From contig JBAYCO010000001.1 in NCBI GenBank assembly GCA_041668685.1, forward strand, positions 1-24,536: a DNA stretch of 24,536 bases. The letters run 5' to 3'. The stretch's first letter is position 1. Each line of letters opens with the position of its first letter. Origin of the DNA: Victivallaceae bacterium (GTDB taxonomy: Bacteria > Verrucomicrobiota > Lentisphaeria > Victivallales > Victivallaceae). Both the position numbers and the translations under genes were made by a program. Of the stretch, positions 7,265-10,856 are shown piece by piece. The notes under the pieces were generated by a model. It was not told the origin of the DNA, ran no database searches, and worked only from the letters and a program-made list of their open reading frames with translations.

Positions 7265-7338
7265 AACCCCGTGGTGTAATGGTAGCACAAGTGGTTTTGG
7301 TCCACTTAGTCTAGGTTCGAATCCTGGCGGGGTTGCCA
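7265..7338 (+). tRNA. tRNA-Gln (anticodon TTG), CCA encoded
   Basis: Acceptor AACCCCG/CGGGGTT; D arm GTGT-AATGGTA-GCAC; anticodon arm AGTGG-TTTTGGT-CCACT; T arm CTAGG-TTCGAAT-CCTGG; discriminator G then CCA. Confidence 0.96.
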
Positions 7339-7339
7339 G
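7289..7339 (+). repeat. attL: 51-bp direct repeat (3' part of tRNA-Gln)
   Basis: AAGTGGTTTTGGTCCACTTAGTCTAGGTTCGAATCCTGGCGGGGTTGCCAG, identical to 10806-10856. Confidence 0.95.
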
Positions 7340-7660: not shown

Positions 7661-8002
7661 CTACTTTTTAGTTTGATCTGCCTGCTGTCTGTCAATTTCC
7701 GCCGGGGTTTTGATTTCTTCAATGTACTGTAAAACTTTCAGGCGGTTGCTTCTGCCGAGACATTTCCATTCGCTGAGTAATTCCGAAGTTAAGCGGTCGA
7801 ATTCATCAATATTTACGCCTGTCGGGGATTTCAATATGCTTTTGATTATTCTTTTATTGCCGGCTCTAAGTTTTACTTTACCGGTCAGCCAGCGATATAA
7901 GCTTTCGCGGGTAACTCCGAGGAGATTGGCCAGTTCAGCTTGAGTCAGATTATGAGTTTCACGATATTCGGCTAATTTATTGAGCAATGTTGCATCATCC
8001 AT
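7661..8002 (-). CDS. XRE/Cro-C1-family helix-turn-helix regulator, 113 aa (start reassigned to ATG 8002)
   Basis: LAEYRETHNLTQAELANLLGVTRESLYRWLTGK; GGAG RBS upstream of ATG 8002. Confidence 0.85.
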   Translation of the reverse strand: MDDATLLNKLAEYRETHNLTQAELANLLGVTRESLYRWLTGKVKLRAGNKRIIKSILKSPTGVNIDEFDRLTSELLSEWKCLGRSNRLKVLQYIEEIKTPAEIDRQQADQTKK

Positions 8003-8023
8003 GATATTATCTCCATTAAATAT

Positions 8024-8049
8024 TGTTATATAATATGTATTATACAACA
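8024..8049. promoter_or_regulatory. Imperfect palindrome upstream of the XRE gene (candidate operator, back-to-back TATAAT boxes)
   Basis: TGTTATATAAT-atgt-ATTATACAACA: 11-bp arms with 1 mismatch. Confidence 0.45.
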
Positions 8050-8152
8050 TATCCATAAAAAATCCACTAAAATATTGCAAAATATAAAACATTCAGCGTA
8101 TAAAGATAGTTTTATTTATCATTTATGCAGCATGGAGAAAGTTGCATCAGGA

Positions 8153-9304
8153 TTAATTTATTTCCGTTTTCGTTGTTTCTATGAACTTTCGCTCTTTTTC
8201 TATTTCGAGAGACAATTCTTCTTCGCTTGGCAGGAAATCCAGATACTTCGATGCAAAAATCTGTTTGCTTTCGTTCAACACGGAATATTTCGCCACGGTT
8301 TCACTTTTGCTTGAACATAAAATCAGACCCACTGTCGGGTTATCGCCTTCGACTTTAAAACGGTCTTCAAACAGACGAACATAACCGTCCATTTGCCCGA
8401 CATCCTGATGGGTGAGTTTCCCAAGCTTGAGATCAATAAGCAGGAAGCATTTCAGAATAAAATTGTAGAACACTAGATCAACATAAAAATCATCGTCATC
8501 AATTTTGATATGTTTCTGCCTGGCGACAAAAGAAAAACCTTTACCAAGTTCCAGAAGAAACGACTGCAGATTATCTATTATCGCCTGTTCGAGATGAGAT
8601 TCATGGAGTTTGGGATTATCCGGCAAATCCAGAAATTCGAGCACCATCGGGGATTTCAGAATATGAACAGGTGACAACCGTTCACCCGGAAGGCATTCAT
8701 GTTTGTCCGGAAGTAAACCGTTTTCTCCTTGATTGGCAATAATCCTTTCATAATATGACGTATGTATTTGGCGTTCCAGTTGGCTTTTGCTCCAGCCGCA
8801 TTCGGCAGCTTCGTGCTCATAGAATTTTCTGGCCTCTTCGTTTTTTACTCGCATTAATGCCCGGTAATGTGACCATGAAAGGTTTGAATTGAATCCAGTT
8901 GTGAATTCGCTACCCGACGGGTAGCATTTTGTAAGCGGAGCTAATTCTCGCTCTGGTGGGGCGAGTTTTTGAATATTTCCCAATTCGCTACCCGACGGGT
9001 AGCGAATTCCAGCCAACTTATCTGCATAAATCAAATAAAACTGTCTAAAATTTTTCAAATTAGGAACGGAAAAACCTGAACCATAGCGGCTATTCAATTT
9101 ATCTGAAAGTTCTTCTATAACCTGTTTCCCGTATTCCGCGCGTTCCTCACCACTCTGGATATTCTCAACAATTTCCCTGCCGATAAGCCAGTAGGCGATC
9201 ACCATATTTGAATTGACCGACCGAACCACATTGTTCCGTGCTTCTTCAAGGATGGATACTATCCGTTCAAAAAGATGAGTTGTTTTGGTTATATCACTTT
9301 TCAT
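8153..9304 (-). CDS. yhcG: YhcG / DUF1016 family PD-(D/E)XK nuclease-domain protein, 383 aa
   Basis: N-terminal VNSNMVIAYWLIGREIVE...YGKQVIEELS...GFS..NL..FRQFY; LSWSHYRALM; WSKSQLERQI; LEFL; FLLELGKGFSFVARQ; YVDLVFYN...LIDLK...DVGQMDGYV; VGLILC. Confidence 0.92.
   Translation of the reverse strand: MKSDITKTTHLFERIVSILEEARNNVVRSVNSNMVIAYWLIGREIVENIQSGEERAEYGKQVIEELSDKLNSRYGSGFSVPNLKNFRQFYLIYADKLAGIRYPSGSELGNIQKLAPPERELAPLTKCYPSGSEFTTGFNSNLSWSHYRALMRVKNEEARKFYEHEAAECGWSKSQLERQIHTSYYERIIANQGENGLLPDKHECLPGERLSPVHILKSPMVLEFLDLPDNPKLHESHLEQAIIDNLQSFLLELGKGFSFVARQKHIKIDDDDFYVDLVFYNFILKCFLLIDLKLGKLTHQDVGQMDGYVRLFEDRFKVEGDNPTVGLILCSSKSETVAKYSVLNESKQIFASKYLDFLPSEEELSLEIEKERKFIETTKTEIN
8904..9008. repeat. 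Three in-frame 39-bp-period units inside yhcG, each carrying a 27-bp (quasi-)palindrome
   Basis: Units start with AATTC at 8904, 8943 and 8982; palindrome centres at 8917, 8956 and 8995. 8982-9008 is a perfect AATTCGCTACCCG-a-CGGGTAGCGAATT. 8904-8925 equals 8982-9003 (22 bp). Confidence 0.9.
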
Positions 9305-9409: not shown

Positions 9410-10696
9410 TTAGCCGGAAACTATTTCCAGTATCTGTCTTTCGGTATCCGTTAAAACTGCTTTGGTATTCAATATGCTGGAAATTTTCCGGATTTTTTCG
9501 CCGTCTGTTTCATGTAGTGTATTTTCTCCCTGCGGCAAGGCGTTGATCGCTTGTCTTGCCGCGCCTTCTCCGATATGGACATAATGCCGGGTAATGGCGG
9601 GACTGCCGTGTCCGACGATTGACTGGACTACCGGCATGGGAACTCCGGCTTTGGCGCAGAATGATACAAAGGAATGCCGGAATGAATGAAAACCGTAGAC
9701 GTTTGCCTTCCTTTTTCGACGTTGTCCGTTTTCAATTTCCTGATTAAGCTCCAAACCTACAAACTTAAACACCTTGGCAGTAGCAGCCGGAACTGAATAA
9801 TAATTTTCAAAATATCTTCTGGCTAAGTTAGGCATGACAAAATCATTGTTTTTCCATTCCAGAGCTGAAATCAGTTTTTCCCGCAAAAGCGGATGAATTG
9901 GGACATTAACCGTTCTTTTTATCCTTTTCGTCTTTTGAGGCATACAGAAAATGATGTTTCTTTCCAGATTGATATTTTCCCATTTCATTAATACACAGTC
10001 TATGAGCCGCAAACCTGTCCAAGCGCCAAGATGGAAGAGAACTTCCATTTCCTCTTTATCTTCCAGAATGAGATCGGAGTCTTTGAAGGAATTCAGGATT
10101 TCAATTACCTGAAGCTCTGAAAATTCTTTTCTTGAAAGTTTATTTTCTATTTTCCTGCCGATTGAATCGAAAGGATTGTCGTCCAGTCCGGCTTTTTTCT
10201 GCAAATGTTTGATTATTAGTTTTATCGCCTGAATATGGGTATTGAAAGTTTTGCCGGATATCCCTTTATTCCAAATATAGTCCGCGTATTCCACAGCGAT
10301 ATCCTCAGTAAGTCTTCCCAATTCCTGAATAGCAGGATAATTGACCGCTAGCCATTGTTTGAAGCGGGAAAAATATTGTCCATAGCGTTTTAAAGTTTCA
10401 GGGCCTGAATCCGGTCTGGTTGGAGTTTTAAGAAATAATTCCCATACCTGAGACAGCTTTATTGATTTTTTTGCTACGAGTTTCCTGGCTGTAGCGACAT
10501 TGAATATCACTTTTTCTTTTGTATCAGCGATAAGGGCCGGTTCCAGAATTTCTTTGGCTCTTTTCTGGGCTTCCGTTTCTATTCTTGTCTTTAAGGATTG
10601 AACAAAGCGTTTGCCATTAATATTGTATTGCAAATAAAATATCTTGCCGCGCTTGAAAATATGTCCCTTGCCTTTTGCCGTGCCCTTTTTTGCCAT
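9410..10696 (-). CDS. Tyrosine recombinase / phage-type integrase, 428 aa (start reassigned to MAKKG, ATG 10696)
   Basis: N-terminal arm-binding-like GKGHIFKRGKIFYLQYNINGKR. Catalytic motifs TGLR, HSFRH and IVGH...ITRHY (R, H-x-x-R, H, Y). GGGGA RBS. Confidence 0.95.
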   Translation of the reverse strand: MAKKGTAKGKGHIFKRGKIFYLQYNINGKRFVQSLKTRIETEAQKRAKEILEPALIADTKEKVIFNVATARKLVAKKSIKLSQVWELFLKTPTRPDSGPETLKRYGQYFSRFKQWLAVNYPAIQELGRLTEDIAVEYADYIWNKGISGKTFNTHIQAIKLIIKHLQKKAGLDDNPFDSIGRKIENKLSRKEFSELQVIEILNSFKDSDLILEDKEEMEVLFHLGAWTGLRLIDCVLMKWENINLERNIIFCMPQKTKRIKRTVNVPIHPLLREKLISALEWKNNDFVMPNLARRYFENYYSVPAATAKVFKFVGLELNQEIENGQRRKRKANVYGFHSFRHSFVSFCAKAGVPMPVVQSIVGHGSPAITRHYVHIGEGAARQAINALPQGENTLHETDGEKIRKISSILNTKAVLTDTERQILEIVSG

Positions 10697-10738
10697 GATG
10701 CGTTCCCCATATTTACGGTCATTGCTTTTCTGTTCTTT

Positions 10739-10767
10739 ATTATACAGGCAGAAAAAAGTAAAAGCAA
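10739..10767 (-). promoter_or_regulatory. Integrase promoter
   Basis: Minus strand TTGCTT (10767-10762), 17-bp spacer, TATAAT (10744-10739). Confidence 0.65.
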
Positions 10768-10782
10768 GCAAAAGGCATACAA
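10761..10782. promoter_or_regulatory. Candidate integrase arm-type binding sites (P arm)
   Basis: Tandem AAAGCAAGCAA (10761-10771) and AAGGCATACAA (10772-10782), matching the AAAGCATACAA units near attL at 9/11 and 10/11. Confidence 0.6.
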
Positions 10783-10805: not shown

Positions 10806-10856
10806 AAGTGGTTTTGGTCCACTTAGTCTAGGTTCGAATCCTGGCGGGGTTGCCAG
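10806..10856 (+). repeat. attR: duplicated 3' part of tRNA-Gln (51 bp)
   Basis: Identical to 7289-7339; lacks the acceptor 5' strand and the D arm. Confidence 0.95.

Follow-up and report, generated by a model that had tools for sequence, protein, structure and literature searches.

Why should a nuclease gene carry DNA palindromes inside its reading frame, in the linker between its two domains? The question is raised by a yhcG gene of the YhcG/DUF1016 family in a stretch of 24,536 nucleotides from a Victivallaceae bacterium (assembly GCA_041668685.1, contig JBAYCO010000001.1, positions 1 to 24,536), which we refer to as the window. The YhcG protein is laid out as an N-terminal helical DNA-binding-like domain, a palindrome-encoded loop and a C-terminal PD-(D/E)XK nuclease domain. 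Few uncharacterised nuclease families are as common as YhcG/DUF1016 in restriction-modification loci, defence islands and mobile elements, and we know of no target for it. The answer towards which we lean, with a confidence only slightly better than even, comes from sequence comparison: the palindromes may be self-encoded, double-stranded binding sites of their own YhcG, with the reader helix and its site diversifying as one cassette.

Three in-frame palindromes in the yhcG linker

Three units of 27 nt lie in frame in the linker, with centres at 8917, 8956 and 8995 and thus a spacing of exactly 39 bp. In protein order they encode IRYPSGSEL, KLAPPEREL and KCYPSGSEF, ahead of the conserved LSWSHY motif, and both the sequence and the coordinates agree with those of a first-pass annotation that had described coding palindromes here. 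The stretch 8904-8925 is identical to 8982-9003. In the core of the middle unit (8948-8964) five of the eight pairs are Watson-Crick, and the other three are G.T on the plus strand and A.C on the coding strand.

We compared the units with 20,000 synonymous resamples in which the peptide was fixed and codons were drawn from the yhcG gene's own usage. The 13 Watson-Crick pairs of 13 found in unit 1 were never reached, and the 10/13 of unit 3 and the 8/13 of unit 2 had P values of 0.00035 and 0.024, respectively. For the core pattern, 0.07 occurrences are expected in the window and two are found, and every unit, folded as single-stranded DNA, beat all 200 of its shuffles. A chance origin of the units is excluded. 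Units 1 and 3, being palindromes of the same sequence, form a direct and an inverted repeat at the same time; an inversion between units would probably break the frame, since the corresponding plus-strand frame contains a stop codon. The 107-nt segment 8903-9009 can also be folded as one long stem (-31.9 kcal/mol, z-score -7.5).

Neither the 121-nt region nor the core pattern has a second copy in the 4.1-Mb, 87%-complete assembly. The half-site pair GCTAC-N7-GTAGC occurs four times in the genome, against five for a control pattern; apart from the two in the gene, none of its copies is a good one. A dispersed repeat resembling repetitive extragenic palindromic (REP) sequences, miniature inverted-repeat transposable elements (MITEs) or Rickettsia palindromic elements was ruled out by this lack of further genomic copies. 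Rfam 15 yielded no relevant family, its sole match being a chance small nucleolar RNA (E=0.12) outside the units, and a known RNA family was ruled out by this result. We also rejected an intrinsic terminator, that is, a hairpin with a T-run on the plus strand, because the T-run accompanies only two of the three units and is absent in the single-unit relatives inspected, such as the gene at locus L098.

A family-wide element whose symmetry exceeds what the peptide requires

In homologs from many phyla, at about 70% identity, the motif I-x-x-P-x-G-x-E-[LSF] is present once or repeated up to about seven times with a period of 13 residues; the statement in the first-pass annotation that this position varies among DUF1016 proteins was therefore correct. 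In 75 genes (74 homologs and the window gene), which together hold 180 units, the units average 9.0 Watson-Crick pairs out of 13, whereas synonymous resampling gives 5.3; the comparison is of the kind that the annotation had proposed. More than half of the units (92/180) scored above all 200 of their synonymous resamples. At least 12 of the 13 pairs were formed in 32 units, among which there are more than 25 different sequences. Compensated variants include IRHPAGDEL, IFHPTGGKL, ISYPPGTKF and IGYPLGSQL, the last of which has a Gly at -2 that forces a Gln at +2.

The element extends to distant DUF1016 genes of the window's own phylum, most of them with a single unit, in which perfect palindromes with other cores and perfect arms of 12 to 14 bp occupy the same codon. 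The palindrome is 14+1+14 at L098 and 13-3-13 at L112, and loci L113 and L116 differ by a compensatory change from CGC/GCG to CTC/GAG. In 103 of 104 genes the base at the centre opens a codon (frame 0), and a perfect stem of at least seven was found in the linker of 108 of 144 genes. Pairing is retained even at the innermost positions (59-65% at positions 1-2). The three units of the window are likewise dyads that closely precede the SW[ST]H codons and have a first codon base at their centre, and they are real copies of this family-wide element. The symmetry is kept by compensatory changes beyond what the peptide requires, as both the synonymous resampling and the many compensatory variants show, in line with the earlier claim that the DNA symmetry persists while the peptide changes.

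We found no description of an in-frame yhcG palindrome in the searchable literature. Published work on DUF1016/yhcG deals with fold assignment and gene neighbourhoods (PMC9881135 and PMC4316617 among it), and a study of inverted-repeat conservation treats non-coding repeats only and does not mention yhcG (PMC5941160).

The encoded loop is disordered in the structure model and follows a candidate recognition helix

An AlphaFold model built from 121 sequences reached a mean predicted local distance difference test score (pLDDT) of 84.8 and replaced a model from a shallow alignment (pLDDT 52). It places helices at residues 5-49, 57-74 and 80-92, the last with a pLDDT of about 90, and the N-domain resumes at helix 144-150, which carries the SWSHY motif. 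Residues 93-143 are modelled without secondary structure, with block-mean pLDDT values of 49-65 over residues 101-130. In this model the palindrome-encoded peptide is a tolerated, disordered passenger. The suggestions that this peptide might itself set specificity, or be predicted as a recognition helix, were thus not upheld: it forms a low-confidence unstructured loop, and the residues that track the palindrome, K84 and N85, lie in the preceding helix.

The C-domain of the model has a PD-(D/E)XK fold that matches NucS/EndoMS at Z 12.6 and also Can2, Card1 and Bax1. A Foldseek search with the whole model returned matches to the nuclease domain only, and matches to the N-domain came from an exhaustive VIA structural search. 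The best non-nuclease matches, both at Z 6.0 over model residues 33-192, were the ParB DNA-binding domain on parS (6s6h_B) and Thermus thermophilus Spo0J (1vz0_A). Pfam HTH_ParB (PF17762) matched four of the four N-domains tested at 14-20 bits, below the 22.6 cut-off (E 0.05 to 0.0009), and 12 of 121 family members matched it at E<=0.01, below the gathering score. A sequence search of the PDB gave no match. These resemblances to the ParB/Spo0J helix-turn-helix (HTH) domain are suggestive, not conclusive.

The model also bears on a cause at the level of the messenger RNA (mRNA) or the protein, namely hairpins in the transcript that pause ribosomes or stabilise the message at the domain boundary, or a protein beta-hairpin with cross-strand residue pairs. 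Such causes would suit the conserved position at a domain boundary, and P-x-G is a typical turn motif. The modelled loop contains no beta structure, and since synonymous sites carry constraint, a purely protein cause is excluded; a beta-hairpin or any other purely protein origin of the residue covariation was rejected on the combined grounds of the synonymous resampling and the disordered loop. Departures from pairing that G.U would tolerate on the mRNA strand are the rarer kind, and neither idea explains the rule, described below, that links helix residues to palindrome bases. We consider this group of explanations highly improbable.

Residues of the preceding helix covary with bases of the palindrome

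Helix 80-92 follows the pattern N-L-x-y-F-R-z-F-Y, where x, y and z are residues 84, 85 and 88. By eye, the x-y pair goes with the type of the first unit: K-N is found with IRYP.GSE, Q-N with IQYP.GTK, W-N with ILSP.GRE, W-R with ILAP.GRE, W-Y with I[LP]HP.GGE and K-Y with I[RG]HP.GD[EQ]. To the covariation set 80 further DUF1016 regions were added, and the set was reduced to 65 unique combinations. Residue 84 was associated with base 8 (mutual information 1.13 bit, z-score 13.7) and with base 9 (z-score 8.5), and its z-scores with bases 4-6 were 2.7 or less. Residue 85 was associated with bases 4, 5 and 6 (z-scores 7-8), with values of 2.8 or less for bases 7-9. According to the resulting rules, base 8 is T with Trp or Phe at residue 84, G with Lys or Arg, A with Gln and C with Glu, and base 6 is C with Tyr at residue 85, T with Asn and G with Arg. 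The pairs K/R-G, Q-A, E-C, W/F-T, R-G and N-T(A) are classic direct-readout preferences of side chains for bases.

The link concerns the base and not the encoded residue, as the codons found with Lys84 (GGT, GGC, CGC, CGT and AGC, for Gly, Arg and Ser) share only the G at base 8. The associations recur in clusters defined by the flanking sequence, that is, the upstream 75 residues (W-T in 10, R-G in 7 and F-T in 5). An identical base-8 rule emerged from the P.G-type subfamily (58 combinations) and from genes with other cores (23 combinations), and it could be transferred between them: learned on the P.G-type genes, it predicted 17 of 19 cases with other cores (6.7 by permutation), and in the reverse direction 43 of 52 (16.7 by permutation). 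The rule for residue 85 predicted base 5 in 16 of 18 cases against 10.4, and base 6 in one direction in 42 of 48 against 18.8. The two rules also combine factorially, with K-Y giving GC, K-N giving GT, W-Y giving TC and W-N giving TT. Since the two residues are adjacent and the two codons are adjacent, such a pattern is hard to obtain by block inheritance alone. All in all, these covariation tests favour the proposal of the first-pass annotation that YhcG may have self-recognition sites within its own gene.

Helix and palindromes are exchanged together between near-identical islands

Two relatives of the window YhcG, 87% and 89% identical to it, lie in islands of the same gene order in other metagenomes. 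The island copies (L128 2545-5638 and L131 1894-4504) are about 90% identical in DNA and have different neighbours (GntR/LacI-type regulators). The presence of the same island beside different neighbours indicates that it is mobile and that the yhcG specificity block is exchanged independently of the remainder. In L128 the sharply delimited swap covers window positions 9128-8972 (residues 60-111), which comprises the helix and unit 1; in L131 it runs from window position 9057 to about 8917, that is, from codon 84 to the centre of unit 3. One of the swap junctions lies between units 1 and 2 and another at the centre of unit 3.

All three islands obey the residue-base rules: the window combines K-N with G8/T6, L128 combines W-R with T8/G6, and L131 combines Q-N with A8/T6. 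Unit 2 is degenerate in L128 as well as in the window. The unit 2 of the window is better read as a degenerate T8/G6-type unit, which fits the W-R helix of L128 and not the helix of the window itself, an account simpler than selection for a wobble hairpin. The swaps resemble normal recombination tracts in which the helix upstream is replaced as well. Around 8955-9183 the contigs of two other landfill samples break off, and the contigs of four runs showed no joints or indels at the locus, although contigs cannot show rare variants. The heterogeneity at 8904-9008 that the first-pass annotation had suggested looking for was thus not seen in assembler contigs, in which the breaks around the variable block prove little. 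In runs X3 and X4, contigs share with the window only a 36-nt helix-coding stretch (window 9026-9061, five differences), which is followed by a different unit, an AGACA-C-TGTCT palindrome; these contigs therefore point to another DUF1016 gene, with a QT.S-type site, in the same habitat.

The palindromes could also be thought to act through a single-stranded hairpin or an extruded cruciform, whether of the non-coding strand or of an antisense RNA, that serves diversification, recombination or cassette acquisition, or that is recognised or cut by the nuclease as a structure. Each unit folds well as single-stranded DNA, the recombination junctions between alleles fall at units, and the C-domain is similar to NucS, Hjc and other structure-specific nucleases. 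Among 129 unique units, departures from pairing that are G.T on the plus strand also outnumber those on the coding strand, 146 against 55. This bias of 2.65:1 has to be set against 1.7:1 in a composition control, and the most frequent departures include synonymous third-codon positions (CCG>CCA, NCG>NCA, GGG>GGA). In the middle unit the plus strand folds better by only 1 kcal/mol, and the innermost pairing that the family retains cannot be used by a hairpin loop. Moreover, Rfam gave no match, the units are not dispersed in the manner of REP, MITE or attC sequences, the contigs of the four runs lacked joints or indels within the limit just given, and a model of structure only predicts no dependence on the helix residues. 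We regard a role for such a structure as improbable. Of the hairpin-based cassette diversification that had been suggested, the swappable cassette is borne out by the near-identical islands, while acquisition through hairpins or an integrase is not, as the swaps resemble ordinary recombination tracts that include the helix and the units are not dispersed. In the same way, the three G.T pairs of the middle unit on the plus strand are real, and the strand-specific argument built on them is not supported, given the composition control, the small difference in folding energy and the unit's likeness to a degenerate T8/G6 site.

Still less probable is that the palindromes bind another protein, for which the XRE regulator, the integrase or a host factor could be considered, and that their linkage to the YhcG helix is mere hitch-hiking. 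The gene does lie between an integrase gene and an XRE HTH gene, and the core sites of tyrosine recombinases are inverted repeats. Against this, the XRE and integrase genes of the islands remain about 90% identical while the palindromes are swapped, the palindrome is general in DUF1016 genes on many contigs and in many phyla, and it covaries with YhcG's own residues in associations that recur across sequence clusters.

A proposed site and its reader in one gene

In the mechanism that we favour, the N-terminal helical domain, putatively of the ParB/Spo0J-HTH type, would read DNA, and the loop right after the proposed recognition helix (residues 80-92) would be encoded by one or more 27-bp dyad-symmetric sites. 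A YhcG dimer would read each half-site, with residue 84 facing base 8 (counted from the centre) and residue 85 facing bases 4-6. Because site and reader are about 40 bp apart, they would be inherited and exchanged as one specificity cassette, and this joint inheritance would give each allele a private site. In the window, the K84-N85 helix would be paired with units 1 and 3, and unit 2 would be a degenerate unit of the other type. Binding might serve autoregulation by a roadblock, loading or sequestering of the nuclease on its own element, or exclusion of like elements. It is from sequence patterns that we infer physical binding, the dimer stoichiometry and any purpose of binding.

Several observations weigh against this interpretation. 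The distance of about 40 bp between the helix and unit 1 means that block inheritance inflates the raw covariation. The rule linking residue 85 to base 6 failed in the other direction of cross-validation (8/18, P=0.12). Among the later units of arrays, the bases that their own helix would predict are found in 62%, and shuffling of helix types among genes lowers this share to 20% (maximum 35%); the agreement is confounded by tandem duplication. Arrays mix unit types, and the non-cognate units are no less perfect than the cognate ones (6.52 against 6.57 of 10, counting later units paired at positions 6 and 8). Binding alone would not lead one to expect this, and the predicted decay of non-cognate units while cognate ones stay perfect was not borne out. 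Half-site centres about 15 bp apart and an array period of 39 bp are not obviously suited to binding on one face of the DNA. The assignment to the ParB type is weak, as common helical arrangements can give Z values of about 6 and the Pfam matches are below the gathering score, and the correspondence of helix 80-92 to the ParB recognition helix is tentative.

The equal perfection of non-cognate units is what would be expected if the palindromes were a mutational by-product, in which template switching between the arms of a tolerant loop keeps the arms identical, and gives the appearance of compensation, without any function. Pairing between the arms is strictly Watson-Crick and often continues without a break up to the centre, and the encoded loop is disordered and variable in length, hence tolerant. 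Template switching is documented for bacterial inverted repeats (PMC5941160), and it may be the route by which both arms change jointly. As a full explanation we find it unlikely, more probable all the same than a structural or a foreign-protein role, for it accounts neither for the one-codon position across a family of many phyla nor for helix residues 84 and 85, which lie outside the repeat and track its bases by chemically sensible, transferable rules.

Returning to the self-encoded site, one may ask what an allele-private site would be for. We consider it possible, if rather doubtful, that the nuclease relies on this site, which its own gene alone would contain, to distinguish its element from others, for instance in order to load onto or protect its own DNA or to keep out incomers of the same type, that the residue-base code is portable, and that this use drives the swapping of cassettes. 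If this were true, a widespread orphan nuclease of defence islands would have a predictable and re-programmable DNA target. An in-gene site together with residue-to-base rules that hold across subfamilies gives a concrete candidate DNA target for each allele and testable specificity-switch mutants. The yhcG gene would be a reader and its site diversifying as one recombining block, and it illustrates with unusual clarity how a constraint on DNA symmetry has shaped a protein-coding sequence.

The yhcG island

The yhcG gene belongs to an island of about 3.5 kb inserted at the 3' end of a transfer RNA (tRNA) gene, tRNA-Gln, whose only genes are those of the integrase, YhcG and the XRE-type protein; no recognisable replication, transfer or excisionase gene was found in it. 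The coordinates of the features are collected in Table 1. The window protein matches DUF1016_N (PF17761) at 143 bits against a gathering cut-off of 32.8 over residues 15-187, with about 36 residues extra relative to the 137-position profile, and the YhcG_C PD-(D/E)XK domain (PF06250) at 178.5 bits, which places it in the family on both counts. In an alignment of YhcG homologs, D276 and K293 are invariant and D291 is nearly so. The PADLOC candidate defence family PDC-S02 matches the protein at E=3e-136. The HSDR_N_2 domain of type I restriction gave weak matches in 11 of 121 YhcG relatives, which fit the reported position of the YhcG family in restriction-modification loci. YhcG/DUF1016 genes are also enriched beside genes targeted by programmed inversions (PMC9881135) and are found on conjugative elements (PMC4316617).

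Table 1. Features of the yhcG island and of the palindromic linker (window coordinates)
Feature	Position	Strand	Basis and remarks
YhcG/DUF1016 gene, 383 residues	8153..9304	-	open reading frame; Pfam PF17761 E=8e-42, PF06250 E=1e-52; PADLOC PDC-S02
Conserved LSWSHY codons (residues 142-147), where the N-domain resumes after the loop	8864..8881	-	invariant alignment columns; helix 144-150 in the model
Unit 3, KCYPSGSEF, residues 126-134	8904..8930	.	perfect 8+1+8 core (8909-8925), 10/13 overall, centre 8917, bases G8/T6
Unit 2, KLAPPEREL, residues 113-121	8943..8969	.	degenerate palindrome, centre 8956, 8/13 Watson-Crick pairs, half-site type T8/G6
Unit 1 in protein order, IRYPSGSEL, residues 100-108	8982..9008	.	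perfect 13+1+13 palindrome, centre 8995, bases G8/T6
Hypervariable swapped block	8917..9128	.	identity 45-62% against 85-100% elsewhere (sliding window)
Codons for helix N82-L-K84-N85-F-R-Q88-F-Y90, proposed recognition helix	9035..9061	-	model helix 80-92; covariation
XRE-type HTH protein, third island gene	7661..8092	-	Pfam HTH_3; present too in L128 and L129
Tyrosine integrase of the 3.5-kb island	9410..10771	-	Pfam Phage_integrase; gene order shared with L128-L131
51-bp direct repeat, one island boundary	7289..7339	+	overlaps the 3' end of tRNA-Gln (tRNA 7265-7338)
51-bp direct repeat, other island boundary	10806..10856	+	identical second copy

Comparison with known systems

The layout closest to that of yhcG is found in phage lambda, where the gene of the binding protein likewise contains, in frame and after the DNA-binding domain, an array of the dyad-symmetric sites that this protein binds. 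For YhcG, the role of binder is a proposal drawn from the covariation. In the lambda sequence J02459, the O coding sequence (38686-39585) contains four sites annotated as 'ori iteron' (39034-39118). The iterons encode a linker that follows the N-terminal DNA-binding domain of O, and from one lambdoid phage to another they change together with that domain. In contrast to YhcG, lambda O is a replication initiator without a nuclease domain, and its sites are 18 bp long with a spacing of 20-24 bp, whereas the yhcG units are 27 bp long and spaced by 39 bp.

In fold and type of site, the closest system is ParB/Spo0J with parS, together with KorB-OB and Noc-NBS, in which a helical HTH domain reads a palindrome as a dimer, as is proposed here for YhcG. 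One Bacillus subtilis parS lies inside spo0J, and the specificity of ParB-family proteins is switched by a few helix residues. Pfam detected no ParB N-terminal (cytidine triphosphate-binding) domain in the YhcG protein, and the island contains no ParA gene. The YhcG domain differs further in being fused to a PD-(D/E)XK nuclease, and the yhcG site, unlike the 16-bp parS, is 27 bp long and lies within the reading frame family-wide.

Short palindromic units associated with mobile DNA are also known from REP sequences with their REP-associated tyrosine transposases (RAYT), from MITEs, from Rickettsia palindromic elements, which sometimes lie in frame, and from attC sites. All of these are multi-copy and dispersed, whereas in the 4.1-Mb assembly the yhcG unit is found only inside the gene. 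A report on Nematomorpha mitochondrial genes describes coding palindromes, that is, perfect inverted repeats overlapping coding sequence (PMC6649704), and in Proteobacteria inverted repeats maintained by template switching have arms that evolve in concert (PMC5941160). Such repeats are genome-wide and are not known to have a cognate reader, whereas the yhcG palindrome occupies one fixed codon position in one family and covaries with a helix. The closest known layout is thus that of lambda O and the ori iterons, and the closest fold and site type are those of ParB/Spo0J and parS; YhcG is a member of neither, and we class its in-gene arrangement as a variant, undescribed in the searchable literature, of a known kind of layout.

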